Positions 17,014-36,349 of a stretch of 64,000 nt of DNA are shown here, piece by piece; position 1 is the stretch's first letter; each line of letters opens with the position of its first letter. The position numbers were made by a program, and so were the translations under genes. The stretch is from Candidatus Bathyarchaeota archaeon (GTDB lineage: Archaea > Thermoproteota > Bathyarchaeia > Bathyarchaeales > Bathycorpusculaceae): NCBI GenBank assembly GCA_963772455.1, contig CAVYXJ010000013.1, positions 106,315-170,314 of the forward strand, given 5' to 3'. The notes under the pieces are model-generated. The model did no database searches. It saw only the letters and a program-made list of their open reading frames with translations, and had not been told where the DNA came from.

Positions 17014-17415
17014 ATGGTGGAGCAAATATTAAGTGCTACTCTAATCACTGGTAGAACGATAGATCAAGGCGTAGGAAAAGAGATGGGGAAAGGCTCCAAA
17101 GAATACTTTGATAGTAGTTCAGTTTGCTTCATAGATAAATCTGACATGCTAAAACTTGGTATAAAAAGCGGAACAAATGTTCAAGTGACCTCTAAGTACG
17201 GTTCTGTCATCGTTAAAGCAGTAAAATTTCCAAGCGGAATCACACCTGGAATGGTTTTTATACCATGCGGTTTGTGGGCAAATGCAATATGTGGCGACGA
17301 AACTTTCGGAATGGGCATGCCTATTTTTAAGGGGTTTCCAGTTGAAGTCAAAGCTGCCCCAAATGAAGCTGTCTTAACCCTTGATGAGCTTCTAATGAAA
17401 GAATATGGACGGTAA
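17014..17415 (+). CDS. fwdD: Formylmethanofuran dehydrogenase subunit D
   Basis: LITGRTIDQG, VFIPCGLWAN, GMPIFKG. Confidence 0.92.
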   Translation: MVEQILSATLITGRTIDQGVGKEMGKGSKEYFDSSSVCFIDKSDMLKLGIKSGTNVQVTSKYGSVIVKAVKFPSGITPGMVFIPCGLWANAICGDETFGMGMPIFKGFPVEVKAAPNEAVLTLDELLMKEYGR

Positions 17416-17420
17416 TTATT

Positions 17421-18980
17421 ATGAAAGAAATAAAATCCGTTGTTTGTCCAATATGCGGCTGCTTATGTGATGATTTGGAAGTTACTGTGGAAAATAACGA
17501 AATTGTAAAAATGAAAAATGGCTGTGCTCAATGTGAAGCCAAAATGGTTCACGGGTACAAAAGCGATGAAAGAATTCTAAAACCAATGATAAGAAAAGAC
17601 GGCAAGTTAGTTCCTGTTTCCATGGATGAAGCCGTTCACAAAGCAGCTCAAATTCTCACCGACGCAAAGTATCCACTTCTATTCGGCTGGAGCAGCTCAA
17701 CTAGCGAAGCGCAGCGAGTGGGTGTAGAATTAGCTGAAGAATTAGGCTCAGCATTAGATAACTGCTGCAGCGTTTGTCATGGACCATCAGTTATGGCTGA
17801 ACAAGAAATCGGTATCCCTTCATGTACTCTTGGACAAATTAGACACCGTGCAGACCTAGTAATTTACTGGGCATGCGACCCATGGGCTTCACACCCAAGA
17901 CACCTTGAAAGATACACCAGTTTTACTGAAGGTCGCTTTGAAGGTAGCCAATGGAAAAATTACATGCAAAAGTTGAAGGGTGAGGCAAGCATGAAAAAGG
18001 TGGACGCTGCTTCAAAACTAATAACGGGCAGCACTATTCCTACTTTTCGTTCAAAGGCATGTGCTATCGATTCTCCCAACGCTCCACCTCAAACAATGCA
18101 GAAAGATGGACGTAAATTAATTGTTGTTGACGTAAGAAAAACAATAACAGCAGAAGCAGCTGATTATTTCCTTCAGGTAGAACCAAACAAAGATTATGAA
18201 ATACTAGACTCCATGAGATGTTTAATAGCTGACCAAGAACTGGATGTTGACAAGGTTGGTGGTGTTCCAGTTGAATATCTTAAAGAAGTTACAGACGCAA
18301 TGGTAAATTGCGATTTTGGCGTCATTTTCTTTGGTCTAGGCTTAACTCAAAGCGCAGGCAGATTCAGAAACATTGAAATAGCAATCGCAATGACACGTGA
18401 CCTTAACAGAAAAACCAAGTTCGTTATTTCACCCATGCGTGGACATTTCAACGTGACTGGTGCAAACATAGTTTTCGCTTGGCAAACAGGCTATCCATAT
18501 GCACTTGATTTCTCACAAGGATATCCACAATACAACCCTGGAGAATTCACAGCAATTGATTTACTCAATCGCGGCGACAACGATGCGACCCTAGTTATTT
18601 CCTCAGATCCAGGTGCAAACTTCCCAAAGGGAGCAATGCAAAAAATGATGCAGCACCCGATAATCACAATCAACCCAGACATGAACGCAATCTCAAGACT
18701 TGGCGATGTAGTGTTTCCAACTCAGTGGTGCGGAATAGAATACGAGGGAACCGCTTACCGCATGGATCTAGTACCAATAATGCTCCATAAAGTTGTTGAG
18801 CCACCAAAAGGCATTCTAAACGACGAAGAACTATTAAAGAAAATACTAGACGAAGTTCGAGCAATCAAAGCTAAAAATCCAGAAACAGAAACTAAAGCCG
18901 AACTCAAAGCACGCAACAAACTAGCACCCAGGATCGAAATTAAACAAAGAAAGAAAACAAAAAAAGCAGAGGTTGCTTAA
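17421..18980 (+). CDS. fwdB: Formylmethanofuran dehydrogenase subunit B (Cys form)
   Basis: CPICGCLCDD, VCHGPS, PMRGHFNV, GTAYRMD. Confidence 0.94.
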   Translation: MKEIKSVVCPICGCLCDDLEVTVENNEIVKMKNGCAQCEAKMVHGYKSDERILKPMIRKDGKLVPVSMDEAVHKAAQILTDAKYPLLFGWSSSTSEAQRVGVELAEELGSALDNCCSVCHGPSVMAEQEIGIPSCTLGQIRHRADLVIYWACDPWASHPRHLERYTSFTEGRFEGSQWKNYMQKLKGEASMKKVDAASKLITGSTIPTFRSKACAIDSPNAPPQTMQKDGRKLIVVDVRKTITAEAADYFLQVEPNKDYEILDSMRCLIADQELDVDKVGGVPVEYLKEVTDAMVNCDFGVIFFGLGLTQSAGRFRNIEIAIAMTRDLNRKTKFVISPMRGHFNVTGANIVFAWQTGYPYALDFSQGYPQYNPGEFTAIDLLNRGDNDATLVISSDPGANFPKGAMQKMMQHPIITINPDMNAISRLGDVVFPTQWCGIEYEGTAYRMDLVPIMLHKVVEPPKGILNDEELLKKILDEVRAIKAKNPETETKAELKARNKLAPRIEIKQRKKTKKAEVA

Positions 18981-20678
18981 ATGACTGAACTACTAATAAA
19001 AAACGGCTTCGTCTTTGACCCTATTAACAAGATTAACGGGGAAAAAATGGACATAGCCATCAAAGACGGCAAAATCGTCCAAAAAGTCAAAAGCAAAGCC
19101 CAAGTAATTGATGCCTCAGGCTTGACTGTCATGCCGGGCGGCGTTGACATTCATACCCACATTGCAGGTGGGGAAGTTAACACCGGCAGAATAATTCGCC
19201 CAGATGACCATATAAAAGACGTGGAGCGCAAAACAGTCATGACTCGCAGCGGCACAGGCTACTCAATTCCCTCCACTTTTACAACTGGTTACCGTTATTC
19301 TCGTATGGGATATACAACCGTTATGAATCCATCAATGGCTCCACTCCAAGCTAAACATACCCATGAAGAATTAAATGACATACCATTGCTAGACAAAGCT
19401 ACTTACCCGCTTCTTGGCGACTGGTGGTTTGTTTTAGAAAACCTAGCAAAAGGCAAAATTGAAGAATGCGCTAAACATGTCGCTTGGATGCTAGATATAA
19501 CCAAAGGGTACGCAATAAAAATAGTTAATCCCGGAGGCTTGGAATCTTGGGGTTTTGGACACAACGTCCACAGCATCGACGATCAAGTGCCTAACTTCTG
19601 CATTACCCCACGCGAAATCATAACAGGCTTAGCCAGAGTTAACGCTATGCTCAACCTGCCTCATTCTATACATCTTCACACCAACAACCTTGGATTACCA
19701 GGCAACTACACAACTACCCTAGAATCAATGAAGGCACTAGAAAGTGTACCTTACAACGGTAAACCAGTTGGCCATATTACCCACTTGCAATTCGCTAGTT
19801 TTGCTGGCGATGGCTGGGCACACTTCCAATCAGCCTCAGAAGAAATCTCAAGTTACATCAACGCCCACAACCACTTGACTTTTGACATGGGACAAATAAT
19901 ATTCACAGACACAACAACTATGACTGCTGATGGACCCTTCGAATTTTCACTCTACGAGTTAGGCGGCCATAACAAATGGGTTAACAGCGACATTGAAACC
20001 GAAACCAGTGGAGGAATAATACCCTTCACATACAAGAAAAAAAGCCCAGTTAACGCTTTACAATGGTCCATCGGGTTAGAATTAGCCTTACTCATAAAAG
20101 ACCCATGGAAAATGTTCATGTCGACCGACCACCCCAACGCTGGACCTTTCTTTGCCTACCCAAGAGTACTCGCTTGGCTCTACAGCAAGAAAGCACGCGA
20201 AATAACTCTGAAACACTGTCACAAGAAAGCTCAGAAAAAGAGTTTGCTTCCATCAATCGATCGTGAAATGTCACTATATGAAATAGCAATTATGACCCGT
20301 GCAGGACAAGCCAAAGCCTTGGGACTCACCAACAAGGGTCAACTCGGCGTAGGTGCAGACGCAGATGTTGCGATCTATAACATTAACCCCGAAAAACTCG
20401 ACATAGCTCAACAGTTCAAGGTTGCACGCAAAGCCTTCAAACACGCAACTTACACAATTAAAGATGGCACAATCGTCGTTAAAGACGGCGAAGTAGTAAA
20501 CAACCAAACGCCGGGTAGAACCATGTGGCTTGATGTGCAAACAAAGGATCCATGTGTGATTGACGATGAAATGAAACGCAAATTCAAACAATACTGGACA
20601 GTTGAATATGACAATTACCCAGTGTTCGAGCATTACCTCCATGTTCCACAGAAACTAACCGTAAAGGCAAGTGTCTAA
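18981..20678 (+). CDS. fwdA: Formylmethanofuran dehydrogenase subunit A
   Basis: GGVDIHTH, KIVNPGG, TTTMTADGP, TDHPNAGPF. Confidence 0.95.
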   Translation: MTELLIKNGFVFDPINKINGEKMDIAIKDGKIVQKVKSKAQVIDASGLTVMPGGVDIHTHIAGGEVNTGRIIRPDDHIKDVERKTVMTRSGTGYSIPSTFTTGYRYSRMGYTTVMNPSMAPLQAKHTHEELNDIPLLDKATYPLLGDWWFVLENLAKGKIEECAKHVAWMLDITKGYAIKIVNPGGLESWGFGHNVHSIDDQVPNFCITPREIITGLARVNAMLNLPHSIHLHTNNLGLPGNYTTTLESMKALESVPYNGKPVGHITHLQFASFAGDGWAHFQSASEEISSYINAHNHLTFDMGQIIFTDTTTMTADGPFEFSLYELGGHNKWVNSDIETETSGGIIPFTYKKKSPVNALQWSIGLELALLIKDPWKMFMSTDHPNAGPFFAYPRVLAWLYSKKAREITLKHCHKKAQKKSLLPSIDREMSLYEIAIMTRAGQAKALGLTNKGQLGVGADADVAIYNINPEKLDIAQQFKVARKAFKHATYTIKDGTIVVKDGEVVNNQTPGRTMWLDVQTKDPCVIDDEMKRKFKQYWTVEYDNYPVFEHYLHVPQKLTVKASV

Positions 20679-21492
20679 AATGATAATTCTAATACCAAAA
20701 CGAAAATTTGAGGTTCCCGTTCAAGCAGCTTGCATTAGCCCAGATGTATTCAGGGGTAAAGATATTGCTGAAATAGCAAACATGCCTATAACCGAAGGAA
20801 ATCGTAACTTAAAACTTGGCGACCTCTTCGAAATCCAAGAAGACAAACTTGAAACACCATTCATCACCATTAATGGCGATGTTAGCAAAGTCAAACGAAT
20901 CGGTTCAGCAATGAAAACTGGTGAAATTCTCGTCAACGGTGATGTAGGAATGCATACAGGGGAAAAAATGTCTGGAGGCAAAATCATAGTAAACGGTAAC
21001 ATTGGCGGTTGGTCGGGCAATGACATGAAAGGTGGTCTAATCGAAGTGCATGGAGATGCAGGCGACTACTTAGCTTCCCCATACCGTGGCACTAGTACAG
21101 GTATGAAAGGAGGCGTAATAATTGTTGACGGCAAAGTTGGAAGCGACTCAGGATGCTACTTGCACGGTGGCGTTCTCAAAATCAAGGGTGGAGCAGGTAG
21201 GTTCTTGGGTTACCATATGAGTGACGGGGTAATCTTGGTTGATAAGGCAGTTGATATTCGTCCTGGTGCATGTATGACTGGTGGCAAAATCGTTATCACA
21301 GGCACAGTTGACGAAGTAATGCCAACTTTCACGATCGACAGCGTTAAACCTAAAGTCAAAATTGACGATACAACATCAGCGGCGGGACCATTCTATGTGT
21401 TCCTAGGTGACTTAGCTGAACATGGCACAGGCAAAATATTCGTTTCAAAAGCCAACAATCCACAAATGAAATTCTACGAAAAATACCTTTGA
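20671..21492 (+). CDS. fwdC: Formylmethanofuran dehydrogenase subunit C
   Basis: GXGXG beta-helix repeats (MxGGxI.V.G), YRG..GMKGG, GDLAE.G.G. Confidence 0.94.
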   Translation: MSKMIILIPKRKFEVPVQAACISPDVFRGKDIAEIANMPITEGNRNLKLGDLFEIQEDKLETPFITINGDVSKVKRIGSAMKTGEILVNGDVGMHTGEKMSGGKIIVNGNIGGWSGNDMKGGLIEVHGDAGDYLASPYRGTSTGMKGGVIIVDGKVGSDSGCYLHGGVLKIKGGAGRFLGYHMSDGVILVDKAVDIRPGACMTGGKIVITGTVDEVMPTFTIDSVKPKVKIDDTTSAAGPFYVFLGDLAEHGTGKIFVSKANNPQMKFYEKYL

Positions 21493-21494
21493 AT

Positions 21495-21523
21495 AGGCTA
21501 CTAAAGAATTAGCCTTTTCTTTT
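21495..21523 (+). terminator. Hairpin plus T-tract after fwdC
   Basis: AGGCTA-N9-TAGCCT followed by TTTCTTTT. Confidence 0.5.
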
Positions 21524-21631
21524 ATTTTACTTCATTTTCAAAGCCCAATTATCCCGATGAATTGATCAGTCAAGTGCTAACTTAGCCGAATGCCTTATGA
21601 AGTCGGCTAGATTCAAAACTCACTAAGCAGA

Positions 21632-22426
21632 GTGAATGTTATGCGCCAAGTTGACATGACTAGGCTTGACTTATCCACGGGAAAAGCAGAAAAAACAACT
21701 GATTACGTGGCTGAAGAGGTTCCCCTACAAATCACCATAAACTCAGCCTATGCTTTTGTCATTTGGTGTTCTCCCTCACAATTCAAAGAACTCGCAGTCG
21801 GCTACTTGCTATCTGAGGATATTCTTAGTTCTGTTGATGAAATCCAAGAGTTAATCTCTAACGAAGCAAAGAATAGTTGCCAAATTACGATAAAGGCATG
21901 TGTGGATTTGGATGAACGAATGAAAAATATGCGGCAAAGTACACGCATAATTCCCCTTATAAAAGCAAGCACATCACCCTATCAACATGACCAGAAAATT
22001 CCCACGGTAAAATCCAAACTCACAATTAAAGCACAAACCATACTTGACGCAATCGACCAAATCAACAACTTAGCAAAGGGATTCAAAGAAACAGGTGGAC
22101 TACACGACTCAGCCATCTTCCAAGCAGACGGCAAAATGGTGGCTTTCTCAGAAGATGTCGGCAGACATAACACTGTTGACAAAGTCATAGGTGCGGCTTC
22201 GCTATCAAAAGCTGATTTTAACCAAAGCTTCATGATAATCACAGGGCGAGTACCGGGCGATATGATTTATAAAGCTGCAAAAGTTGGTTTACCCATAGTT
22301 GCTTCAGTAGCAGCGGTTCTCAACTCAGGAATTTCTTCGGCCAAAAAAGCCAATATCACTTTGATTGGATTTGTACGTGGAAAACGAATGAATATTTACA
22401 CTTGCGCAGAAAGGATTACTTGGTAG
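21632..22426 (+). CDS. fdhD: FdhD sulfurtransferase (Mo/W-bisPGD sulfuration)
   Basis: EEVPL, ELAVGYL, TGGLH, EDVGRHNTVDKVIG, TGR, TLIGFVRG. Confidence 0.92.
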   Translation: MNVMRQVDMTRLDLSTGKAEKTTDYVAEEVPLQITINSAYAFVIWCSPSQFKELAVGYLLSEDILSSVDEIQELISNEAKNSCQITIKACVDLDERMKNMRQSTRIIPLIKASTSPYQHDQKIPTVKSKLTIKAQTILDAIDQINNLAKGFKETGGLHDSAIFQADGKMVAFSEDVGRHNTVDKVIGAASLSKADFNQSFMIITGRVPGDMIYKAAKVGLPIVASVAAVLNSGISSAKKANITLIGFVRGKRMNIYTCAERITW

Positions 22427-23704
22427 GTGCCTGCAGTGAATAGACCTGACATTAAAAGATTGCCAAAACGCTCAAACCCAATGGATGCACAAAAGCAACT
22501 TCTTGACGCCGTCCACTCAAACTTAAATCCGAGCGAAATGGTGCAGTTGCAGAAAGCTTTAGGCAGAGTTTTAGCTCAAGATGCTATTTCAACTGTTAAC
22601 ATTCCTAACTACGACAAAACTTTCATTGACGGCTACGCAATCAACTCGCAAGATACTAAGGCAGCCTCAACTACAAAACCTGCAGCCTTCAAAGTTGTCG
22701 GAAAATTATTTCCAGCAGATTACCCAACCGCATTTGAAGCTGCTCATGGTGAAGCAGTTTATGTTGCATGTGGAGCTCCAATACCCAAAGGTGCGGATTC
22801 AACAGTAAAAGTTGAGGAAACAAGGTTAAACGGCGACAAAATCGAAGTTATTCGCGAAATCACTTCAGGCGAAGGCATAATACCGCTTGGAGACGACATG
22901 AAAAAAGGCGATTTAATTCTCAAGAAGGGGCAGGTCCTAAGACCGCAGGATATTGGGGTATTAGCTTCACTGGGGATGATCATTGCTGAAGTTGCTAAAA
23001 AGCCAAAAATCGCCATTATTTCGGGCGGAGACGAACTGATCAAGCAAGCCAGCAAAGACCCAGCCAAAATCGCCAATAATTATGCCCTTGTTGTTGCTGG
23101 TTTGGCTTCCGAATTAGGGGCTGAAGCGGAAATGGTTGGGATAATGGCCGATGATTTTGAAAAAGTTACTGCAAAAATCGCTGAAGAGATTGCGGATTCA
23201 GATATCGTGGTTACAATAGGCGGGACATCAGTTGGGGTGAAAGATTTTGTTCCTGATGCTGTCAATGCGCTTGGCGATCCTGGAGTGGTTGTTCAAGGTG
23301 TTTCGTTAAGGCCAGGTGCAGTTTCAGGCTTCGGAATAGTCTGTGGCAAGCCGGTGATTATGTTGCCCGGGCATATTGGTTCTTGTATAGCTGGGTTCTA
23401 CCTTTTTGTCGCGCCCTTAATTAGCCACTACCTCGGGGATAACGGCGATGGTGTGCTTCCAAAACTGAGCGCTGAGTTAGCTGAAGATCTGGAGACTGGT
23501 CCACAATTTCGATTCCAACTCACCCACCTAAAACAGTTTGAGGGCAAACTGTTAGCTGAACAAGTTGAAGGCGGATCAAGCGCATTAACAACTATCGTCA
23601 AATCAAACGGTTATACTATAGTGCCGCCGCATACGAGACTCGCGAAAGGGAGTCGCGTAGAAGTTTACTTATTTGGCAAACTGGAACTTACTCAAATCAT
23701 TTAA
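22427..23704 (+). CDS. moeA: Molybdopterin molybdotransferase
   Basis: GRVLAQD, DGYA, GAPIPKGAD, SGGDEL, GGTSVG.KD, LPG. Confidence 0.92.
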   Translation: MPAVNRPDIKRLPKRSNPMDAQKQLLDAVHSNLNPSEMVQLQKALGRVLAQDAISTVNIPNYDKTFIDGYAINSQDTKAASTTKPAAFKVVGKLFPADYPTAFEAAHGEAVYVACGAPIPKGADSTVKVEETRLNGDKIEVIREITSGEGIIPLGDDMKKGDLILKKGQVLRPQDIGVLASLGMIIAEVAKKPKIAIISGGDELIKQASKDPAKIANNYALVVAGLASELGAEAEMVGIMADDFEKVTAKIAEEIADSDIVVTIGGTSVGVKDFVPDAVNALGDPGVVVQGVSLRPGAVSGFGIVCGKPVIMLPGHIGSCIAGFYLFVAPLISHYLGDNGDGVLPKLSAELAEDLETGPQFRFQLTHLKQFEGKLLAEQVEGGSSALTTIVKSNGYTIVPPHTRLAKGSRVEVYLFGKLELTQII

Positions 23705-24793
23705 GAAACCTTGGGTGGATACCTGTGAACGTGACCGTCTTTTCCCATAACCCACGATTCACACCATGCCTTATCAGCGAATGCACGTTCAGCCAGAAGC
23801 AGACAACGGTTGCTTTCGAAAATTTTTGACTCGACACGGTAGTTATTTGCAGCTCGTAGATAAGCTTCTTTTCCTGCAAAATCTAACGTCGCAGCCAGTT
23901 CCGATTCCGTTTGTTTTTGTGATAGAGTAAACAAAGCTTCTCCTTGGTTTTCTTCAGCTACCCCGCTCCAAAAAAACGAATCACAAGCTTCCAAGTCGCT
24001 GGCACATTTAGCAAAGGTTTTTTGCGCTTCCAAAAGGTTGTTTTCTTGGAGCAATTTGGCTCCTTTTCTGAGAAGCTGCAAATCAGAAACCGAAAATACG
24101 CCCATGTTTAGGTGTACATTTTCTTTTACTGGTCCATATGAACGGCGGGTTTGCAGACGAGTTAGGTCTTCTTTTGAGTTTATGTTAATGAAGCTCTTTA
24201 GTTCCGGGTCGAGTGCTTTTATTTCGTTTACTGGAGAAATCAGCAAGGTTTTGCTGGCTCCTCGTGGAATATCATCTGAGCGAGGCCGTTTCAGTTGGCA
24301 TAGTGTATCCGTGATTTCTAAACTACTTTGGCGTTCCAAGAACCATTATAAGGGTTTCAAGTCTGCCGTTAGGCCACATTGGAACAACCACATCAGACTC
24401 TTCCGCTTCATTAAACATATATTCAGCAACTTTGGGCTGCAAAAAAGGCATATCGCAAGGCAAAGTTAAGCAATAATCCGCTTGAACAGCTCTTAAACCT
24501 GACATGATTGCCACGTTTGGGCCACTTATGTGGCTAATTTTTTCGTCAATAACAATCCTGACGTTTTTAATGGCATATTGTTCTAAAGTTTTAGTATATT
24601 TCGCTTTTCGTTCCTCATCGTTTACACACACAACGATTTCATCGACAATGTCCTTGACGTTTTCCATAGCGTGGATTAAAAGAGGTTTACCGTTGAGTTC
24701 AGCTAGGGCTTTATCTCGCCAGATTGCATCTATTGTTTGGAATCTGCGAGCTTTTCCCCCTGCCAAAATGAGTGCAGCCCGTTTAGCCATCAC
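23701..24793 (-). CDS. mobA: Molybdenum cofactor guanylyltransferase with C-terminal helical extension (frameshift near 24337)
   Basis: LILAGG..RRF..DKA, LPCDMP, then NINSKEDL in the second frame; one-base removal joins the two ORFs. Confidence 0.85.
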
Positions 24794-24799
24794 GTTTCC

Positions 24800-25372
24800 T
24801 CAGTTAACGGTTTTTGTGCTTGCTTTACCTAATTGTTCTTTTATAAGCGTGATTAGTTTTTGGCCCTCTTCAGGAATCTTGATTATCGGTATATTTCCAT
24901 AAGATGTATTGGTTGCGTTTGTGGCTGCAATACCTGTAATCGCAATGATTGGCTCAACTGTTCCCTGCAACGTTTCTTCGAGTCCTTCTCTGTTTTTCGC
25001 TGTAATAATTTTGGGCACATCAACTCTTTTAGCTATTAAGCTGTGGAAGCCTTCAATGAATACGATATCGAGTTTCTCTTGTTCCAAAAGAGCGATTATT
25101 TGGTTTAAATCGTTGAGTGCCATCTCGGTTTTTTTGATGATGTCTATTTCTTCAGGTGAAATGGCAACAATGACTTTGGAGCCTGCCTTTGCATAACGCC
25201 AAGTGTTGGTTCCTTCTTTATCCATCGTGAAGCCTTTGTGGTGGACATGCTTTATTGAGCCGATTTGGTAGCCTTCAGCTGACAGATGAGAAATAAGGTA
25301 CTCTAAAGTAACTGTTTTTCCTGAACCGCTAACGCCAACAGCGGCTATAACTAAAACCGTAAAGTCGCACAC
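24800..25372 (-). CDS. mobB: Molybdopterin-guanine dinucleotide biosynthesis protein B
   Basis: GVSGSGKT P-loop, IKHVHH, IEGF; exact start uncertain. Confidence 0.88.
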   Translation of the reverse strand: MCDFTVLVIAAVGVSGSGKTVTLEYLISHLSAEGYQIGSIKHVHHKGFTMDKEGTNTWRYAKAGSKVIVAISPEEIDIIKKTEMALNDLNQIIALLEQEKLDIVFIEGFHSLIAKRVDVPKIITAKNREGLEETLQGTVEPIIAITGIAATNATNTSYGNIPIIKIPEEGQKLITLIKEQLGKASTKTVN

Positions 25373-25521
25373 TCCGCATGGAATCAAGTTGCTTGGCTTT
25401 TTATAAATAATGCTCAAGCTGTTTGCTTTCTGCGGTAGTTTTCTTAAAGATAGCGCCAACCGCTGGTTGTCATTAAACCATATATGGCTGTTTTAAGATA
25501 AAAACAGTTCAGGTGTAGTTA

Positions 25522-26032
25522 GTGCCAAAGCTTGTAGCGGTTGTCGGTGGGAAGCATTCTGGAAAAACCACTGTGATTGAGCATTTGATAGTTGAGCTCA
25601 AGCGTCGTGGGTACCGAGTGGGAGCTGTTAAGGAGATGGTTCGGATTCCAACGTTGGATACGCCAGCAACCGAAACCGACAGGTACAGCATTGCAGGAGC
25701 AGAAACGATAGTTGCCGTTCCAAGAGACGAAACTGTGGTTTTCATCAAAAGAAGATTGAACATAGAAGAAATCGTGCCTTTCCTAGAAGGGTTAGATTAT
25801 GTTGTTTTAGAAGGCTTTGAGTCAGAAAAAATGCTTCCTAAAATAATCGCAGCAAAAACCGCTGATGAAGCAAAAAGCTATTATGATCCTCTCTACCATC
25901 GCCGTTTCAGGAATAATAACTGAATCAGACATCGAAACCAAAAAAGCGGCTGCCATAAAAGTTCCAATATTCAATTTGACTGAAACTGAAGCCTTGACTG
26001 ATTTGATTGAGAAAAAAGCTATTGAAATGTAG
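25522..26032 (+). CDS. mobB: Second MobB paralog (frameshift near 25892)
   Basis: GGKHSGKTT, DT.R..AGA, LEGF; one-base removal extends to ..IAVSGII..LIEKKAIEM*. Confidence 0.82.
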
Positions 26033-26033
26033 C

Positions 26034-26538
26034 TTAACGGACTTCGATTGCTACTACGCCTCTGACCCATCTTTGTGCAAATTGATCGCTGCCTATTATG
26101 AGTCGCAGTGGTCCTTCACCATCATCTTTTAGCGCTGTCAAGGGTGAGCCGTTTCTTTGGTAGGCTATGATAGTGTTTTGGTTCATTGCATCTTGGATAC
26201 TTATGGTCGTTCCGTAGCCGTCTGAAGCTTGAATGTATACGGAGGTGGCACTTGTCAAGGATGATGGCTTGGGCAAGTAATTCTGGAAGTTGAACGCCGG
26301 TGTAATTGTAAACACCGTTGTCTGATGGTCTGCTGCTAGACGACAATGTAACTTGTACAGTTGTTGATGGTTGTGTTTTGAGTTGGCTAAGTGTCAGTGT
26401 TGTTGGGTTGTTTACTTTTCCCTTAATCTGTAAGACATCAGTTTGCGTTGTTTCTGGACGCGTATAATAATATAGCGGCACTGCTGCGATAATCAAAAAA
26501 ATAAAGAAGACAAAAACAATTTTTGAGGCTTTCTTCAA
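26034..26538 (-). CDS. Membrane-anchored sulfite-oxidase-fold (Oxidored_molyb) single-domain protein (frameshift near 26265)
   Basis: N-terminal TM, LQIKGKV..P..L, YTGV.L.ELL, ASDGY, NG.PL..GPLRL..WVR.V..IEV; no Cys. Confidence 0.78.
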
Positions 26539-26549
26539 GCAAAAACGCC

Positions 26550-27476
26550 TTAGGTTACTGTAACTCCTGAAACCCACCTAACCCAATATTGACCCCACTT
26601 AAAATCTTCCGTTGGAACAACAAGGCGGTAAGGTTGACCGTTAACAGGTGTTAGGTAAGCGCCGTTTTCTTGGTATCCAATCAAGATACCAAGGTCTTTG
26701 GCTTGCTGGATCGTGTATTCTCGGCTGTAACCGTCAATTGCTAACACAGTGACTTTGCTGGCGCCTTCTGAGACACCGCTGGCTTGCAGAATACTCCAAA
26801 GACTCACACCAGTCCACTCAGAAGTTCTTTGGGGTTCTCCACCTGGAGCAAGCGCTGCCTGCACAGTTATGGGTTCATAATTTGCTAAGTTGTTGCCTGT
26901 TAATACAAGTGGGTTAGAGACTGCCCCTGTAAAGTTGATTGTCCACGGTTGCAAACGGATTTCACTTACGCTTTTAACATTAAAGTTTGATGCTAACCCT
27001 GGAGTTATTAGTTTTAGTGGTCCTTCAGAAATATCAGTTATCCAGTTTCCATTCTTGGCAAACGCCAAAATTATTTCTTCACCTGAATACTGTGTGCTGT
27101 TGTAGGCTTGATAGGTGTTTATTGTTTTGTTGAAGCCATCAGATGCAATTACGTTGATAAAGCCTGCATCCCATGAGGCACCGATGTGGTTGAGAAGCTG
27201 GAGCATTGTTACTCCGATGTAATTGGCTGTTTCGCCTTTAATTGTGCTTGTTACGTTTGTCAAGGGCATCTGGGTAAGGTCATCTATAGTCACGGTTTTT
27301 TCTGATGCAATGTCACCTGTGATTTTGAGTTGAACCTGCGGTGGATTACCACTAGGTAAACCTAAATTGCTTTTTTGAGCTGGACCGCCTGTTAAATAAT
27401 AAATGGATGCTGTTAATGCAATAATAACTACAGCTAATGTTGAAACCGCTAAAACGATTTTTCTGGTTTTATTCAA
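26550..27476 (-). CDS. Membrane-anchored protein with two tandem Oxidored_molyb-like domains
   Basis: N-terminal TM; two repeats of ITG..L..(Y/W)xGV..A.DG(F/Y)..NG..(G/Q)P..L..P; no Cys. Confidence 0.82.
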   Translation of the reverse strand: MNKTRKIVLAVSTLAVVIIALTASIYYLTGGPAQKSNLGLPSGNPPQVQLKITGDIASEKTVTIDDLTQMPLTNVTSTIKGETANYIGVTMLQLLNHIGASWDAGFINVIASDGFNKTINTYQAYNSTQYSGEEIILAFAKNGNWITDISEGPLKLITPGLASNFNVKSVSEIRLQPWTINFTGAVSNPLVLTGNNLANYEPITVQAALAPGGEPQRTSEWTGVSLWSILQASGVSEGASKVTVLAIDGYSREYTIQQAKDLGILIGYQENGAYLTPVNGQPYRLVVPTEDFKWGQYWVRWVSGVTVT

Positions 27477-28044
27477 TTTTTTTTCCTCCGAAACCGATTT
27501 TTCCTACTCTAAATAGAAGCATGTTAGCGATGAATCCTCCAATGCAACCGCTTATTGCTGCAACAACACTCAAAAATGAGAGCACCCCCAAAGGCAAAAA
27601 CAGAACTAATGCTCCCACTGAAATGGTTCCGACAACATTAGCTATTGCTGCGGCACCGATGCAACAGGCTGAACAGCAGGCTTTATGCTTTGAAATCAAA
27701 AAGAAAGCGTCGATTGCTAAGCCAGGGGCAAGATAGATGACAAATGAGAGGAGACCGAAGTTGCCGAATGGAAGCAGCAGACTAATGAAGGCTTGTGTTA
27801 AGGAGACCATTGAGGCAGCCCCGATTTTACGTACAAGACCAAACGCCATTACTGGCCACATCATGTATAATCCTCCGGCTACAGCACCAGTTGGGACGTA
27901 CAGTGGTCCTGTTATAGCGGCGACGAGTGGGTGGATAACATTTTTTGTTGCTAAGCCAAGGCTTGCGAAGAGTGCCATTAGGACTAAGTCTGTGGTAGCG
28001 ATTTTTAGGGTGCCTTTTGCCAAGTTTTGGTGTGGTTGATTCAT
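27469..28044 (-). CDS. ECF-transporter S component
   Basis: About 190 aa, 5-6 TM, TTDLVLMALFASL, VRKIGAA, PGLAID; CCSACC loop. Confidence 0.8.
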   Translation of the reverse strand: MNQPHQNLAKGTLKIATTDLVLMALFASLGLATKNVIHPLVAAITGPLYVPTGAVAGGLYMMWPVMAFGLVRKIGAASMVSLTQAFISLLLPFGNFGLLSFVIYLAPGLAIDAFFLISKHKACCSACCIGAAAIANVVGTISVGALVLFLPLGVLSFLSVVAAISGCIGGFIANMLLFRVGKIGFGGKKIE

Positions 28045-28053
28045 GCAAAACTC

Positions 28054-28077
28054 CGATGTTATCACTTTGTAACATCG
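28054..28077. promoter_or_regulatory. Palindromic operator candidate CGATGTTA-N8-TAACATCG
   Basis: Perfect 8-bp inverted repeat between a minus-strand TATA-like element (about 28079-28087) and ATG 28044. Confidence 0.6.
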
Positions 28078-28118
28078 ATAAAATAAACCTATCGTTAAAA
28101 AAAACAAACAAAACCAAA

Positions 28119-28448
28119 TTATGAAAGTTCCATTACAACGCCATCAAGTTTTAACTGAGCGTTCCGGTATCTTTTCACCAAATCTTTGCCAAAATCCGTA
28201 ACCTCCGAAGAACCACCACCCTTTGCCCCACCGCGAACCCGAGTAACCAAAGACTCACCTAACCTCTCCTCAGCCAAAGTTAGTCTATGCAAAGCATACC
28301 GATAAGACATCTTCAACTCATTAGCAGCCTCTAAAACAGAATGCCGTTTATCAATTTCTTCGAGCAATTCAGCTAAACCATTTCCAAAAACTGCTTCGCC
28401 TTTATCGTTAACCATCCAAAGCTTAATCGCAAAACCTAAAGCGCACAA
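28119..28448 (-). CDS. modE: ModE-family winged-helix regulator (N-terminal domain only)
   Basis: FGNG..ELLEEI..HSV..AA..L.MSYR.A..RGGAKGGGSS.VT. Confidence 0.85.
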   Translation of the reverse strand: MCALGFAIKLWMVNDKGEAVFGNGLAELLEEIDKRHSVLEAANELKMSYRYALHRLTLAEERLGESLVTRVRGGAKGGGSSEVTDFGKDLVKRYRNAQLKLDGVVMELS

Positions 28449-28658
28449 TTGTTGCTCACCGCTTGTAGTTAGGGGAGTTGAAGGGAATTAAGCTTAATGC
28501 CTGTTTTGTGAGATTGATGGTTTCTATTATCTATTTTTTATTGCAGGTTGTTGGAGCGTTGTGTTTAGTAAATCATAACGCTTTTATAAATGTGATATAT
28601 ACAATATATACTGTATATTTTTAACATATTTTGTACAGGTTAAGTGGAGAAGCGGAAA

Positions 28659-29546
28659 ATGGAAAGCAACAAACAAAACCAAGAAAATGCAAATACCTAC
28701 AAAATCCTCCAAAAACAGCAACTAAACCCACAAGTAAAACTTTTAAAAATCCATGCGCCAAACATAGCCCAAAAAGCCCAACCCGGACAATTCGTTATCC
28801 TGAAAGCACACCAAAACAGCGAACGTATTCCCCTAACCTTAGCCTGCTGGGATAAACACGCCGGCACAATTACCCTCATTTTCCAAGAAGTGGGATACTC
28901 AACAATCGAACTGGGCAAACTCGAAATTGGCAACAGAATAGAAAACCTCGCCGGTCCCCTGGGAAAACCCAGTGACATCCAAAGATACGGCAAAGTCGCA
29001 GTTGTATGCGGAGGAGTCGGAACTGCCGTTGCGTATCCAATCGCTAAAGCCCTCAAAGAGGCCAAAAACTGCGTTGTAACCATCATGGGCGCAAGAAACC
29101 AAGACCTCTTCATATTAACTCCCGAAATGATATCCGTGTCAAATGAATTCTACTTCACCACCGACGACGGCGCAAAAGGAACAAAAGGCTTCGTCACAGA
29201 CGTTCTCAAAACCCTGCTCGGAGAAGGCTACAAATTTGACGTTGTCTTCGCGGTCGGTCCTCCAATAATGATGAGTGCAGTCGCCGAAGTCACACGACCT
29301 TTTGGCATAAAAACAATCGTAAGTTTAAACCCCATTATGGTTGACGGCATGGGCATGTGCGGAGCTTGCCGAGTATCAGTCGGCGAAACGATCCAATTTG
29401 CATGTGTAGATGGTCCAGAATTCGACGCCCACAAAGTTAATTTCAGAGAACTCGTTCAGCGGCTCAAGAGTTACTCAACAGAAGAAAAAGTCACCACTCA
29501 ATGTAACGTTTTGGAAGGAGGCAATTGTAAATGTCACAACCAATGA
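28659..29546 (+). CDS. nfnA: NADH-dependent ferredoxin:NADP+ oxidoreductase small subunit (NfnA/SudB)
   Basis: PGQFVIL..ERIPLT, GGVG, MVDGMGMCGACRV..CVDGPEF. Confidence 0.9.
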   Translation: MESNKQNQENANTYKILQKQQLNPQVKLLKIHAPNIAQKAQPGQFVILKAHQNSERIPLTLACWDKHAGTITLIFQEVGYSTIELGKLEIGNRIENLAGPLGKPSDIQRYGKVAVVCGGVGTAVAYPIAKALKEAKNCVVTIMGARNQDLFILTPEMISVSNEFYFTTDDGAKGTKGFVTDVLKTLLGEGYKFDVVFAVGPPIMMSAVAEVTRPFGIKTIVSLNPIMVDGMGMCGACRVSVGETIQFACVDGPEFDAHKVNFRELVQRLKSYSTEEKVTTQCNVLEGGNCKCHNQ

Positions 29547-30991
29547 ACACCTCTAGAAATCGTTGGCAAGCTGTTGATGCAGCAAAACAAGACCCCAGGG
29601 CACGGGCGAAAAATTTTGGAGAAGTCCTACTGGGGTATTCCGAGAAACAAGCCTTGGTTGAAGCTTCGCGGTGTTTAACATGCTCCACAGCCCAATGCGT
29701 TTTGGGTTGTCCAGTTGGCGTTGACATTCCCGCCTTTATTAAATCCATAAAAGAAAGAAAATACAGCGAAGCCATTGCGAAAATAAGAGAAAAAAACAGT
29801 TTACCCGCAATTTGCGGTAGAGTTTGCCCGCAAGAAGAACAATGCCAAAAAAACTGCATTATGGGCAGAAAAGGCGACTCCGTTTCGATTGGTCGACTTG
29901 AACGATTTGCTGCAGATTTAGAGCTGGAAAAAGGCCAACGGTCCCATGGTAAAGTGCCTTTGAACGGCAAAAAAGTAGCAGTAGTCGGGGCAGGTCCTGC
30001 TGGCTTAACTGTTGCGGCGAATTTAGCTAAACTTGGGTATAAAGTTGTGATTTACGAAGCACTGCATGTTGCGGGCGGCGTTTTGGTCTATGGTATCCCA
30101 GAGTTTCGGTTGCCTAAACACGTTGTTCAAGCAGAAGTGAACTACGTTAGGAGTTTAGGCGTTGAATTGCAGACTGACGCGTTAATCGGCAGATTATTCA
30201 CCGTGAAGGAACTGCTGGCAAACGGGTTCGAAGCGGTTTTCATAGGCACAGGCGCAGGTCTACCAAAATTCATGGGAATACCCGGAGAAAACCTCTGCGG
30301 AATCTACTCCGCCAACGAATTCTTAATCCGCGTTAACCTAATGAAATCCTACCAGTTCCCAGAATATAAAACACCAATCCACATAGGTAAAAAAGTAGCA
30401 GTCATCGGTGGTGGGAACGTCGCTTTAGATTCAGCCCGTTGCGCGTTGCGATTGGGCGCTGAAAGAGTCGTCATTGTTTATAGACGGTCAAGGGACGAAA
30501 TGCCAGCACGTGAAGAGGAAATCAGCAACGCTGAAGAAGAAGGTATAATCTTCAAGTATCTTGCTTGCCCCACCCAGTTCATTGCAGACGACAAAGGCCA
30601 AATTAAAGGCATGGAATACGTCACTATGAAACTCAGTGAACCCGACGCGTCAGGCAGAAGTAAACCCCTACCCATCAAAGGCTCTGAAGCAATTTTGGAC
30701 GTTGACACTGTAATCGTCGCAATAGGACGTACCCCAAACCCCATAATCCAATCCACAACCGAAGGCCTAAAAACCCTAATTGGCGGCATCATAGAAATCA
30801 ACCGAAAAACTGGGCAAACTAGCCTTGAAGCAGTCTACGCAGGCGGCGACATAGCCACGGGAGAAGCAACCGTTATCAGCGCGATGGGTTCAGGAACAAT
30901 AGCAGCCAAAAGCATCGACGACCACTTAAAGAATAAACCTCAAAAAGAAAGAGAAATAGAACGCGAAATGCCTAAAAGCAAAGTGATTTGA
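29531..30991 (+). CDS. nfnB: NfnB/SudA large subunit (GltD-like)
   Basis: RCLTC..CVLGCPV, CGRVCPQEEQC, GAGPAG, GGGNVA, AGGDI.TG.ATV. Confidence 0.9.
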   Translation: MSQPMNTSRNRWQAVDAAKQDPRARAKNFGEVLLGYSEKQALVEASRCLTCSTAQCVLGCPVGVDIPAFIKSIKERKYSEAIAKIREKNSLPAICGRVCPQEEQCQKNCIMGRKGDSVSIGRLERFAADLELEKGQRSHGKVPLNGKKVAVVGAGPAGLTVAANLAKLGYKVVIYEALHVAGGVLVYGIPEFRLPKHVVQAEVNYVRSLGVELQTDALIGRLFTVKELLANGFEAVFIGTGAGLPKFMGIPGENLCGIYSANEFLIRVNLMKSYQFPEYKTPIHIGKKVAVIGGGNVALDSARCALRLGAERVVIVYRRSRDEMPAREEEISNAEEEGIIFKYLACPTQFIADDKGQIKGMEYVTMKLSEPDASGRSKPLPIKGSEAILDVDTVIVAIGRTPNPIIQSTTEGLKTLIGGIIEINRKTGQTSLEAVYAGGDIATGEATVISAMGSGTIAAKSIDDHLKNKPQKEREIEREMPKSKVI

Positions 30992-30995
30992 AGTT

Positions 30996-32054
30996 TTATT
31001 TTTCTTTTTTTGTTTCTTCATGCTCAATGCCCGATTCAGGGTTGGGCGTTTTAAAGGCGCGGTTCACTGTCATTTCAGCCATGCTAAATGCGCAATGACA
31101 GATTCTTTTTATGTCATCACGGGTTGAGCATATGCCGCACACTAAGTCAGAGCTTTTTGGGGGACCAGTGAAGGATTTTGTGGCTATTTCTACTTCGGCT
31201 TTGTCCATTTTTTGGCGGTACTTCATTATTTCAACTGCGGCGTCTATGTCTTTGGCGAAGAAGGCGGCGATTCCTTTATTGAAAAGATCCAGGACTTCTC
31301 TTCCTGTAGTAATCATAATCGCCAACACATTGTCGGGAATCTTTTGTTTTGCGCCGTTTAGCATAATGATGTGGCGGGAGATGTCGGCTGCATAGTCAGC
31401 TGCATATTCCATCCGGTAAACTAGAATTTGATGATCCATACAATCGAGCGGATCAACATGTAACTCTTTGGCCAGAGTCGGATTTTGGGCTGCGTCGCGC
31501 AGGATTCGCAGGATGAAGAATGCAAAATGATCCACGTCTTCGTCGAGAGTCATGACCGACTTAGCCAGTTCTATATCTCCGGTTTGCAACGCGTTAATAG
31601 CGCTTTCAACCATCGACGAGGCGATGAGGTGCATACGTTGTACGGCCTGCTCTAGGGAAGCCTTCGACTCGTCCATGAGGCTTTGGATGTAAACGCATTT
31701 TGAATCTGCTTCCATGACTCTCATGTAGAGCCTTCCAGCCATATGCCGAATTGCTTTCGTTTGATTTACTGTAAAAATTTTTCCTGAGGTAAGTATTATG
31801 CCTGAGTAGCCATTGAGGAAGGCACCCAAGATTTTCTGTTTTATGAGAAGGTCTTCTTCGTTTTGTCCTATGCTCAAAGTTATTTCTTTGGGCTCGGCTT
31901 TTTTGAAGGCTCCGGGGTAAATCACGAGTGAGCGGTCCCGTTGAATGGTGAATGAGACGGAGTCGCCTTTTTCCAAGTCGTTTAATTGCATCCATTCTGG
32001 GGGAAGAGAAATAACTGAAGAGGATTTCCCTAAGGACATGATTTTTCGTTCCAT
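30996..32054 (-). CDS. AbrB-PhoU family regulator
   Basis: N-terminal RKIMSLGKSS.VISLP.EW AbrB domain followed by PhoU repeats (DEDVD, E..AD). Confidence 0.85.
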   Translation of the reverse strand: MERKIMSLGKSSSVISLPPEWMQLNDLEKGDSVSFTIQRDRSLVIYPGAFKKAEPKEITLSIGQNEEDLLIKQKILGAFLNGYSGIILTSGKIFTVNQTKAIRHMAGRLYMRVMEADSKCVYIQSLMDESKASLEQAVQRMHLIASSMVESAINALQTGDIELAKSVMTLDEDVDHFAFFILRILRDAAQNPTLAKELHVDPLDCMDHQILVYRMEYAADYAADISRHIIMLNGAKQKIPDNVLAIMITTGREVLDLFNKGIAAFFAKDIDAAVEIMKYRQKMDKAEVEIATKSFTGPPKSSDLVCGICSTRDDIKRICHCAFSMAEMTVNRAFKTPNPESGIEHEETKKEK

Positions 32055-32208
32055 ATGTTTTCCCTGCTTGGCAGTATTAACAGTACATACTCTATTTACT
32101 AAATATATATTATACTTGTGAAACCTGTTTGTCAAAGGTATCTTTAACAACTGTTTTTCAGCAAATCAATTGCAAGAAAATGCCAGTACCGACTTTCCTC
32201 TTAAGGAT

Positions 32209-33228: not shown

Positions 33229-33327
33229 ATTTCATTTGCTCCAATTGTCGATATTATTCCAAATAGCACAGGGATTTATAGGTATAAAAATATTCAAACC
33301 AAAAAAAATGGAAAAGAAGAGTTTTGG

Positions 33328-34618: not shown

Positions 34619-34702
34619 AGCAATCACATGCCAATGATGAGCGTATTGAAAATTCTAATTATTAAAATTATTGATAAATATTATTAGAAATATTGATTGA
34701 GG

Positions 34703-34937
34703 CTAGCGTTTTTTAACTAAAACCTTAAACTCAGCGGCAGACTTCGAATGCTTCAACCACTTCATGACCATTATTCTTAACCCAACGCTGAATGTTATCA
34801 AACTCCAACTCACCCTCACCAACAACCTCCAACAACTGTCCAGCAACCATCGTCTCAAGCTTACGCTTCGTAAACACCACTGGCATGGGACACATTTTGC
34901 CCTTAACATCCAACTTTTCAATTTCCAAAAACGTCAC
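34703..34937 (-). CDS. tusA: TusA/SirA-family sulfur (selenium) carrier (frameshift near 34748)
   Basis: LDVKGKMCPMPV motif; one-base removal gives ..EASKSAAEFKVLVKKR*. Confidence 0.85.
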
Positions 34938-36342: not shown

Positions 36343-36349
36343 AACTATT

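Follow-up and report, generated by a model that had tools for sequence, protein, structure and literature searches.

The operon described here raises the question of what a transporter subunit of the energy-coupling factor (ECF) type does together with surface proteins of the sulfite oxidase (SUOX) fold that have no molybdenum-ligating cysteine. It lies in a 64,000-nucleotide stretch of DNA from Candidatus Bathyarchaeota archaeon, called the window below, which is part of contig C13 of a 2.45-Mb genome (24 contigs, 92% complete, contamination 3.4%). On the minus strand, from position 28448 down to 26034, the operon contains the genes for a ModE-type helix-turn-helix (HTH) protein, an ECF S-component, a two-domain SUOX-like protein and a one-domain SUOX-like protein (Table 1). 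The S-component gene overlaps the gene of the two-domain, 308-aa protein by 8 nt, and a gap of 11 nt separates the latter from the third gene. The tight coupling of an S-component with a CCSACC motif to SUOX-like genes, which an earlier note made from the letters of this DNA had pointed out, is therefore present. On the basis of gene context and structural models, we consider it fairly probable that the operon supplies those parts of an ECF-type ABC importer that capture the substrate, and that this importer would salvage an external molybdopterin-type cofactor. The cargo would be the molybdenum cofactor (Moco), its tungsten counterpart (Wco) or metal-free molybdopterin (MPT), possibly after trimming of dinucleotide forms. 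To our knowledge, Moco and its tungsten form are generally regarded as cofactors that each prokaryote must build itself.

The S-component exceeded the PF09819 cut-off of 25.2 bits (Table 1) and was the sole match to this family in the genome. Its 212-aa open reading frame (ORF) with a TTG start is probably too long, and the ATG start was preferred. An AlphaFold2 (AF2) model built from a 55-sequence alignment showed six helices with a mean predicted local distance difference test (pLDDT) value of 84.4. The best match of this model in the Protein Data Bank (PDB), found with Foldseek, was 5edl (E 5.3e-5, TM-scores 0.70/0.68, 23% identity), followed by RibU, BioY, PanT and ThiT. The search labels 5edl only as 'an S-component of ECF transporter'; we take it to be thiamine-bound YkoE. 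When compared with PDB chains by sequence, the S-component gave no match at E <= 1, and no NCBIfam model matched either it or the small SUOX-like proteins. The family is small: of 1.84 billion cluster representatives, 205 matched with E values up to 1e-3 and 109 with values up to 1e-10, and several of its members are 331-687 aa long. The PF09819 match, the six-helix fold and relatives encoded with ecfA, ecfA' and ecfT identify the window protein as a true ECF S-component, as the earlier note had proposed.

Relatives of the S-component were collected in a one-genome-per-species scan. It gave 149 relatives, and the best 80 loci of the 149 were analyzed: 34 from Bathyarchaeia and 46 from other groups (mainly Clostridia, with Thermoleophilia, an Actinomycetes metagenome-assembled genome and one Helarchaeote). 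Neighborhoods were counted in the 70 loci with a called S-component ORF, of which 32 are Bathyarchaeial and 38 are not. The CCSACC sequence occupies residues 123-128 of the window protein, within a wider motif H-K-A-C-C-x-x-C-C (residues 120-128). H120, C123, C124, C127 and C128 were invariant across seven Bathyarchaeial S-components, and CCxxCC was found in 31 of the 32. Among the 38 non-Bathyarchaeial proteins, 14 have CCxxCC, 14 have CCxxC and 10 have neither. The AF2 model places the motif between helices 4 and 5. Assuming an N-in topology, as is usual, and the positive-inside rule, it is predicted to face the cytoplasm and not to form an outer loop.

The 308-aa protein has one N-terminal transmembrane segment (residues 7-25) and no cysteine, and it matched SorA (2blf) with an E value of 2e-9. 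The column of the Mo-ligating cysteine was read from a domain hidden Markov model (HMM), built from five Cys-bearing paralogues of the genome and three Cys-less domains and iterated once. At this column, the first domain of the 308-aa protein has a deletion, its second domain a Pro, and the one-domain protein a Ser. All five paralogues encoded elsewhere in the genome have Cys. The loss is general among the neighbors of the S-component. None of the 77 archaeal SUOX domains located within four genes of it has Cys (Ser in 29, a gap in 21, Pro in 20, another residue in 7), and only one of 128 such domains from other phyla does, so the residue is kept in 1 of 205. The core motif of the sulfite oxidase family, G-P-x-R-L-(I/V), is retained. 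Catalysis by the SUOX-like proteins is not expected, since they lack the Mo-ligating Cys and any redox domain, and their active-site hairpin is much shorter. The PF00174 domains without cysteine that the earlier note had seen were thus recovered. Its description of two anchored proteins with three such domains stands as regards the domains and the missing Cys, with the correction that the third gene is split across two frames.

The closest small solved relative of these proteins is PruR, a periplasmic protein of Agrobacterium and other Proteobacteria that has the SUOX fold and lacks the Cys. It is described in the available text of PMC11194511 as binding pterins between a Tyr and a Trp, with a hydrogen bond from an Asn. 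According to the same text, the pterin is contacted by N102, Y104 and W160, and whole Moco does not fit because the Cys hairpin is shortened (PMC11194511). For the one-domain orthologue from locus L038, the AF2 model (pLDDT 90.4) matched SorA, SoxC, YedY and chicken sulfite oxidase (SO) in Foldseek, together with the PruR proteins 7kom, 7kos, 7rkb and 7kp2. Target-normalized TM-scores for the PruR proteins were 0.72-0.76 (0.76 for 7kom). A profile of 53 one-domain orthologues reached 7kom with an E value of 1.9e-8, level with SorA. The invariant D-G-Y of the one-domain proteins aligns with the pterin-contacting N-D-Y of PruR, so that the Tyr is kept and the Asn is replaced by an invariant Asp. 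At the position of the Trp in the P-W motif of PruR they have Ser. The alignment stops before the C-terminal Trp, and a 'QRW' sequence is conserved in many one-domain proteins. The Cys hairpin is a few residues longer than in PruR and much shorter than in SorA. The one-domain protein, 167 aa long and with an N-terminal anchor, looks in its model like a pterin binder of the PruR kind.

The genome encodes another six anchored proteins of the SUOX family that keep the Mo-ligating Cys; by eye, their N-terminal anchors show no twin-arginine motif (Table 1). The loading of such Sec-type extracytoplasmic enzymes with Moco could connect to the transporter, by export or by a hand-off outside the cell.

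In the third gene, the two halves lie in different frames and cover PF00174 profile positions 11-98 and 89-160; neither contains an in-frame Cys. Compared with the intact 167-aa orthologue of L038, the window has one extra base (Table 1). The base at 26254 is absent in all four metagenome contigs of related strains that cover it (runs X2, X3 and X4), which indicates that the break is private to this assembly and may be an error. In the closest DNA run, X1, no contig crosses 26248-26334. Intact one-domain orthologues were found in 53 loci. Other genes are split as well. The mobA gene and the adjoining 212-aa ORF (together 23701-24793) form a single fused ORF of 360-365 aa in L022, L038, L039 and other loci; a PF00174 gene is broken at C9:118898-119390; and trpE/trpG pieces at C5:145181-146705 have an intact copy on C2. 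These cases suggest indel errors in the assembly rather than true pseudogenes. Near-identical duplicated stretches (C15 and C5 over 38-48 kb, C2 and the end of C5, C12:163.5-166.5 kb and C23) point to strain mixture or redundancy in the bin.

The pairing of the S-component with SUOX-like proteins recurs far beyond chance. A SUOX-like protein was encoded within four genes of the S-component in 67 of the 70 loci (32/32 Bathyarchaeial, 35/38 others), and it was adjacent or fused in 30/32 and 30/38, respectively. The mobB gene was found within eight genes in 26/32 Bathyarchaeial loci and 13/38 others; for ecfA plus ecfT at the same distance, the counts were 1/32 and 29/38. In a sample of 401 genomes from the phylum, a strong S-component match was present in seven only, four of them among the 11 genomes of the same genus, and the order S-component, SUOX-like gene(s), mobB was kept in six of these seven carriers. 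According to Pfam, ABC_tran, ABC_tran and CbiQ genes directly follow the SUOX genes in two Bathyarchaeial relatives. In L025/L026, ecfA plus ecfT lie within eight genes of the S-component. No ECF A or T gene occurs within the window, as the earlier note had said, and the sole solitary ecfA-ecfA'-ecfT module of the genome lies on another contig (C10:290286-292740).

Five loci (L070, L074, L076, L080 and L090) encode fusion proteins in which a K/R-rich linker and an additional transmembrane segment connect the S-component with a SUOX-like domain, placing this domain outside the cell. In L071 the S-component is fused to a Phosphodiest domain. Bacterial partners include Phosphodiest or nucleotide-pyrophosphatase-type proteins (17 loci), NTPase_1 (17), Crp-type regulators (9), DUF364/DUF4213 (8), MotA_ExbB with DUF2149 (7) and NapH-like Fer4_5+FMN_bind proteins (6). 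There are also EcfT proteins fused to purple-acid-phosphatase and Metallophos domains, and large surface proteins of the SLH, fn3 or Big_2 kind that contain several SUOX domains without Cys. No DcpA-type GGDEF-EAL gene was found among the annotated neighbors. Cultured strains are among the carriers ([Clostridium] ultunense DSM 10521, Zhenpiania hominis BX12 and Anaerosalibacter sp. ND1), so the idea of uptake is directly testable.

Some bacterial operons have further features. In those of the [Clostridium] ultunense type, one fusion protein combines an RnfG-like FMN_bind domain with a Cys-less SUOX domain that has Asn at the Cys column (L100:6714-9466). The same genes occur in L075, L086, L092, L098 and L107, and a NapH-like Fer4_5+FMN_bind membrane protein adjoins. 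This pair implies electron delivery to surface proteins, possibly keeping or making the pterin reduced. In L083 (4230-6751) and 8-17 other bacterial loci, NTPase_1 (PF03266) and DUF364/DUF4213 ('putative heavy-metal chelation') are accompanied by a MocA-like transferase fused to a CobC-like histidine phosphatase. The three are candidates for receiving or processing an imported cofactor.

The neighborhood of the operon ties it to Mo/W cofactor metabolism. In the window, the plus-strand stretch 17014..23704 contains fwdD, fwdB, fwdA, fwdC, fdhD and moeA, which are Mo/W enzyme and cofactor maturation genes; the names fwdA-D are our reading of the Pfam domains and their order. Together with mobA and two mobB genes, these flanks agree with the earlier note, which had placed the operon beside moeA/mobA/mobB/fdhD/fwd, and Pfam and NCBIfam confirm them. 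Elsewhere, mobB neighbors the S-component in both archaea and bacteria, and the genes of the window, of [Clostridium] ultunense and of the Helarchaeote scored above the equivalog cut-off. The best NCBIfam match of the MocA-like transferase neighbor was the DVU_1551 family, below the cut-off. Other neighbors are FmdE, two xanthine dehydrogenase (XDH)-type enzymes in L076 and an enzyme of the dimethyl sulfoxide reductase (DMSOR) type directly after ecfT in L078.

Regulatory elements were sought with Rfam in all 46 non-Bathyarchaeial loci. In 10 of them (L100, L075, L078, L098, L092, L091, L086, L073, L105 and L112), a Moco/Wco riboswitch (RF01055) lies upstream of the operon on the same strand, with scores of 54-82 bits against a cut-off of 36. 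In L100, RF01055 at 463-580 is followed by a 14-kb run of plus-strand genes that ends with ecfA, ecfA, ecfT and mobB. Riboswitches for thiamine pyrophosphate (TPP), cobalamin or FMN preceded the operon in 0 of the 46 loci. FMN elements in L076, L080 and L090 precede a separate gene for a RibU-like S-component (PF12822), element and gene being found just downstream of ecfA-ecfA-ecfT (L076:14646-15501), and a B12 element in L078 lies far downstream. One energizing module may serve both the Moco-type and the RibU-like S-components in L076, L080 and L090.

In Bathyarchaeia, the ModE-type HTH gene adjoins the S-component gene in 27/32 loci; in the others, it is found within eight genes of the S-component in 0/38. 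The 109-aa protein of the window matched TIGR00637 (ModE_repress) with 55.1 bits (E 6.2e-15), under the cut-off of 98.5, and Pfam HTH_1 with 25.3 bits, under the cut-off of 26.6. It gave no match to the C-terminal, molybdate-binding di-Mop (Mop/TOBE) domain. By sequence, it would correspond to the N-terminal HTH half of ModE only. The modE-like gene of the earlier note thus holds for this half, below the family cut-off, and not for the Mop domain. The expected association with Moco genes in other genomes was borne out by mobB in both domains of life, by RF01055 in Clostridia and by the ModE-type HTH in Bathyarchaeia.

Some carriers seem unable to make the cofactor. MoaC is missing from 14 of the 34 Bathyarchaeial carriers. 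Among these 14, the C-terminal domain of MoaA was found in none, aldehyde:ferredoxin oxidoreductase (AOR) in all and MoeA in 11. One of them, the closed 2.15-Mb genome G470 (reached via L061), appears to be the same as G162. In closed G162, tblastn with the proteins of the window genome detected no moaC, moaE, moeA, tupA or tupB; the moaA search gave weak radical-SAM matches only, and the Pst permease used as control was found. A mod/wtp operon was looked for beside the ModE-like gene of G162, and none was found. This genome has mobA, three mobB genes, fdhD, fwdABCD and an ecfAAT module. With such a gene set, all that is left to the cell is to complete and insert a cofactor in which pterin and metal are already in place. 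Outside Bathyarchaeia, MoaC is missing from 7 of 45 carriers; XDH-type genes are present in five of these seven and PF00384 in six. Five of the seven were tested for other genes, with 0/5 for MoaA (MoaA-C), 0/5 for MoaE and 1/5 for MoeA_N; this set includes an isolate and two genomes that each consist of a single contig (1.84 and 1.90 Mb). Anaerosalibacter sp. ND1 yielded none of MoaA, MoaC, MoaE and MoeA. Cyclic pyranopterin monophosphate (cPMP), the product of MoaA and MoaC, was rejected as cargo for G162 and the five bacterial carriers, in which MoaE is absent too; for the other Bathyarchaeia it may still be the cargo.

These data are consistent with the following route. When the cofactor is scarce, the operon would be switched on through the ModE-type HTH protein in Bathyarchaeia or through the Moco riboswitch in Clostridia. 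The anchored extracytoplasmic SUOX-fold proteins, having lost the Mo-ligating Cys, could then bind the pterin reversibly and free of a covalent Mo-S bond. In many bacteria, a surface enzyme of the nucleotide pyrophosphatase type and the EcfT-fused purple-acid-phosphatase-type domain may convert the guanine and cytosine dinucleotide forms (MGD/MCD) to the mononucleotide form, and the pyrophosphatase-type partner could yield the MPT form, which the SUOX fold binds. The ligand would be handed from the binders to the PF09819 S-component, and its import would be driven by EcfA-EcfA'-EcfT, supplied here by the shared C10 module and in most bacteria encoded in the operon. Once in the cytoplasm, the cofactor would be finished and inserted into Fwd, AOR and other enzymes by the products of neighboring genes, MobB, MobA and FdhD, with mobB and mobA products possibly re-attaching the nucleotide. 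In the window genome, salvage would supplement de novo synthesis and not replace it. Import of a pterin explains most features of the system: the Cys-less binders, the pyrophosphatase partners, the mob neighbors, the cofactor-sensing regulators and the auxotrophs. The capture and ECF import of a pterin proposed in the earlier note is thus supported, as far as sequence and models reach, by the Cys-less SUOX folds, the ECF fold, the link to Mo/W genes and the carriers without MoaA and MoaC.

A complex of the S-component with the one-domain protein was also predicted. It scored 0.42, compared with 0.00 for the best of three controls; between runs, contacts agreed to at least 87%, and the pLDDT of the partner was at least 77. 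Of 80 solved complexes, 58 reached the mark, as did 2 of 110 mismatched pairs; at scores <=0.60, only 7 of the 80 solved complexes reached it, along with both of the passing mismatches. The prediction used custom alignments, so these benchmark counts hold only roughly. The predicted complex gives weak support to the pairing.

Several observations weigh against this interpretation. The window genome has moaA, moaC, moaE and a TupABC-like transporter, and it therefore does not need salvage. In a 151-genome sample of the class, MoaC was missing from 29 genomes; a strong S-component was found in four, two of them without MoaC, so that 27 of 147 non-carriers lack MoaC as well. The enrichment of MoaC loss among carriers, 41% versus 18%, is modest and phylogenetically non-independent. 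The co-occurrence with loss of MoaA and MoaC, which the earlier note had named as a check, holds for a part of the carriers; MoaC loss is shared by non-carriers, and the window genome itself keeps both genes. Of five MoaC-less non-carriers that were checked, G133, G197 and G216 (97-100% complete) lack both MoaC and PF09819 and have 4-9 AOR matches each, and the other two have no AOR; AOR in such genomes means that another route or an unrecognized enzyme must exist. The CCxxCC motif is predicted to face the cytoplasm, and 10 of the 38 non-Bathyarchaeial S-components do without it. A similar shortening of the Cys hairpin occurs in PruR, which is described as too shallow for whole Moco (PMC11194511), so the pocket here might accept no more than a smaller pterin. 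In this assembly, a frameshift interrupts the third gene, and free Moco is chemically labile.

The direction of transport is the first matter on which another explanation bears. Since export of a cofactor by an ECF system has a precedent in EetB/FmnA (PMC9973259, available part), we infer the direction here only from context. An exporter would move Moco or MPT outwards to load Sec-exported, surface-anchored SUOX-fold proteins, which would be unable to take it up before export, much as EetB/FmnA exports FAD for flavinylation outside the cytosol, where the S-subunit sets the direction according to the available part of that paper (PMC9973259). Several anchored Cys-bearing SUOX paralogues of the genome show no twin-arginine motif by eye, and the NapH-like Fer4_5+FMN_bind and FMN_bind::SUOX proteins of the [Clostridium] ultunense-type operons suggest redox activity outside the cell. 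However, carriers without MoaA, MoaC and MoaE have no cofactor to export unless they import it first. The Cys needed by every characterized SUOX enzyme is kept in a single one of the 205 neighboring SUOX domains, the surface phosphodiesterase and phosphatase partners fit nutrient scavenging better, and EetB belongs to PF07456 and not PF09819. We therefore regard export as unlikely.

The cargo, on the other hand, could be the metal itself. In that case, the ligand caught by the SUOX-fold proteins at the surface would be molybdate or tungstate, or a thio-form of these in sulfidic habitats, and it would go to an ECF-type metal transporter regulated like modABC/tupABC. ECF metal systems do exist, such as CbiMNQO and NikMNQO, and a soft metal species could be bound by the four Cys of the conserved S-component motif. 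Transporters for molybdate and tungstate are the classical targets of ModE-type regulators and Moco riboswitches, as stated in the available part of PMC2408646. An oxoanion, though, is useless without MPT synthesis and MoeA, and G162 (closed), G407, G409, G411 and G421 lack those genes and keep the system beside Mo/W enzymes. The natural ligand of the SUOX fold is a pterin, and PruR, the nearest small relative, binds pterins; partners of the nucleotide pyrophosphatase type have no role in oxoanion uptake; and the Cys motif, which is predicted to face the cytoplasm, is dispensed with in the 10 S-components mentioned above. Metal import seems to us slightly less likely than export. A still smaller chance is left to a different small molecule, either thiamine/hydroxymethylpyrimidine or a non-molybdenum pterin (monapterin, neopterin, or a methanopterin or folate precursor), with the Mo-gene neighborhood being secondary. 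Close homologues are annotated as 'ABC-type thiamin/hydroxymethylpyrimidine transport system permease subunit', 5edl (presumably thiamine-bound YkoE) is the best match among solved folds, and PruR-type proteins, with their similarly shortened hairpin, bind small pterins. Yet the identity of the S-component to 5edl is only 23%, the Moco riboswitch was found in 10 of 46 loci and the TPP riboswitch in none, and mobB, MocA-like, FmdE, XDH and DMSOR neighbors recur in unrelated phyla. Salvage of a molybdopterin-type cofactor thus remains the explanation we prefer.

The coordinates of the operon, its flanks and the Cys-bearing paralogues are collected in Table 1. Upstream of the operon, at 28644-32150, the window contains genes for two subunits, one DHODB-type and Fe-S/NAD-binding, the other GltD-like with Fer4_20/Pyr_redox_2, and for a protein with a PhoU/MazE domain; the three are kept beside the ModE-type gene in 11-15 Bathyarchaeial loci. 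They are followed at 32209-36673 by a selenium/sulfur trafficking cluster. It encodes SelD (NF010705, 332 bits, cut-off 291) with an N-terminal GCSCK sequence, a double-cubane-cluster reductase (NF040772, 457 bits), a DsrE/TusD-like protein, a 68-aa YedF/TusA-like protein, a LysR regulator and a Rieske protein. In other Bathyarchaeial loci (e.g., L038, L039, L050, L053 and L068), genes of the SelD-like, DsrE and TusA kinds are again found beside the ModE-type gene, and a link between selenium and Mo/W enzymes is possible.

Table 1. Operon genes, flanking Mo/W genes and Cys-bearing paralogues. Positions refer to the window unless a contig is named.
Feature	Position	Strand	Evidence or remark
ModE-type N-terminal HTH gene, 109 aa	28119..28448	-	TIGR00637/HTH_1; 74 nt upstream of S-component gene
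ECF S-component, 191 aa from ATG, PF09819/YkoE-like	27469..28044	-	PF09819 50.2 bits
Membrane-anchored extracytoplasmic SUOX-fold protein, 308 aa, no Cys	26550..27476	-	two PF00174 stretches, 112.6 bits
One-domain Cys-less SUOX-fold gene 'SO1x' (167 aa in relatives), split	26034..26538 with TTG start	-	
Extra base shifting the frame of the third gene	26252..26254	-	blastn against L038 and L037
mobB, 133 aa, divergent neighbor	25522..25923	+	PF03205 73.4 bits; TIGR00176 83.9 bits, cut-off 76.2
Second mobB, 219-aa ORF	24800..25459	-	PF03205 97.9 bits; TIGR00176 92.2 bits
mobA	24323-24793	-	PF12804 112 bits
212-aa ORF without known family	23701-24339	-	adjoins mobA
moeA	22427-23704	+	MoeA_N/MoCF_biosynth/MoeA_C
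fdhD	21632-22426	+	FdhD-NarQ 224 bits
fwdC/A/B/D	17014-21492	+	Pfam Molydop_binding, Amidohydro_3, GXGXG
Cys-bearing anchored SUOX paralogues	C15:11999-12664, C5:43025-43690, C12:202262-203269, C2:1739-2710, C11:64367-65179, C21:29512-30339		

In the literature searched, with subscription-only papers outside its coverage, no prokaryotic importer of Moco or molybdopterin was described, in line with the earlier note, which had known of no characterized uptake system of this kind. Several hundred 'orphan molybdoprotein' organisms have molybdoenzymes with an incomplete Moco pathway and often no Mo transporter (PMC6147048); the available part of that paper explains them by unknown biosynthetic components or Mo-independent enzymes and does not propose uptake. 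The targets of the Moco riboswitch are listed in the available part of PMC3766115 as biosynthesis genes and Mo/W transporters only. A survey of flavinylation (PMC8238504) does not describe the present system, as its main text contains neither 'molyb' nor 'ECF'. It is conceivable, though we would put it somewhat below an even chance, that Moco/Wco is a shared vitamin of anoxic communities. An ECF importer with surface pterin capture would then sustain Mo/W enzymes from the cofactor of neighbors, in archaea and bacteria, even after loss of moaA, moaC, moaE and often of moeA and every Mo/W oxoanion transporter.

If the prediction is true, the operon would belong to the first prokaryotic uptake system for a metal-loaded pterin cofactor. 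It would also be the first ECF transporter to use extracytoplasmic binding proteins, and the range of ECF cargo would be extended to metal-pterins. Such a system would explain the 'orphan molybdoprotein' genomes, and Moco would join the exchanged vitamins that shape anaerobic communities, including those of uncultured Bathyarchaeia and gut Clostridia. The Cys-less SUOX fold would gain a second non-catalytic role beside PruR signaling.

The six-helix fold and the pairing with EcfA/EcfA'/EcfT are common to this system and the ECF vitamin transporters of the PF09819/YkoE type (5edl). In contrast, the known ECF vitamin systems need no extracytoplasmic binding protein, whereas here the S-component is nearly always paired with or fused to surface SUOX-fold proteins, often together with surface phosphoesterases. 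Control would be by Moco riboswitches or ModE-type HTH genes and not by TPP, and the S-component has the H-x-x-CCxxC(C) motif. In the case of ModABC, TupABC and WtpABC, the likeness consists in a ModE-type HTH gene or RF01055 in front and in the same maturation-gene neighbors. Those are, however, type I ABC importers with a soluble oxoanion-binding protein, which supply metal for de novo synthesis, and unlike them, the system described here persists in genomes without such synthesis. EetB/FmnA of Listeria shares with it ECF-type cofactor traffic between the cytoplasm and extracytoplasmic binders and the use of shared EcfA/T parts (PMC9973259). It differs, according to the available part of that paper, in its PF07456 S-component, its FAD cargo, its outward direction and its partners, ApbE and flavinylated proteins (PMC9973259).

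As for the SUOX-like binders, they share the PF00174 fold and the G-P-x-R-L-(I/V) core with SorA, SoxC, YedY/MsrP and eukaryotic SO and nitrate reductase, but the Cys ligand is missing from them, as is any dimerization, haem or other redox domain, and their export is by a plain anchor at the N terminus. They resemble PruR (7kos, 7kom, 7rkb and 7kp2) in being small, secreted or anchored, Cys-less and almost only a SUOX fold with a shortened hairpin. PruR has the Trp of the P-W motif, where the proteins described here have Ser, Pro or a deletion. It is proteobacterial, whereas these binders occur in archaea and Gram-positives, and it partners the c-di-GMP enzyme DcpA in signaling and binds monapterin-type pterins, as reported in the available text of PMC11194511, whereas here the partners are ECF and Mo/W genes. 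A physiological parallel is the dietary Moco uptake of Caenorhabditis elegans, a eukaryote that takes ready-made Moco from other organisms according to the available part of PMC7849362, with no homology implied. Two known kinds of component, ECF transporters and PruR-like pterin binders, are thus combined here in what would be, if the prediction is true, a new function.

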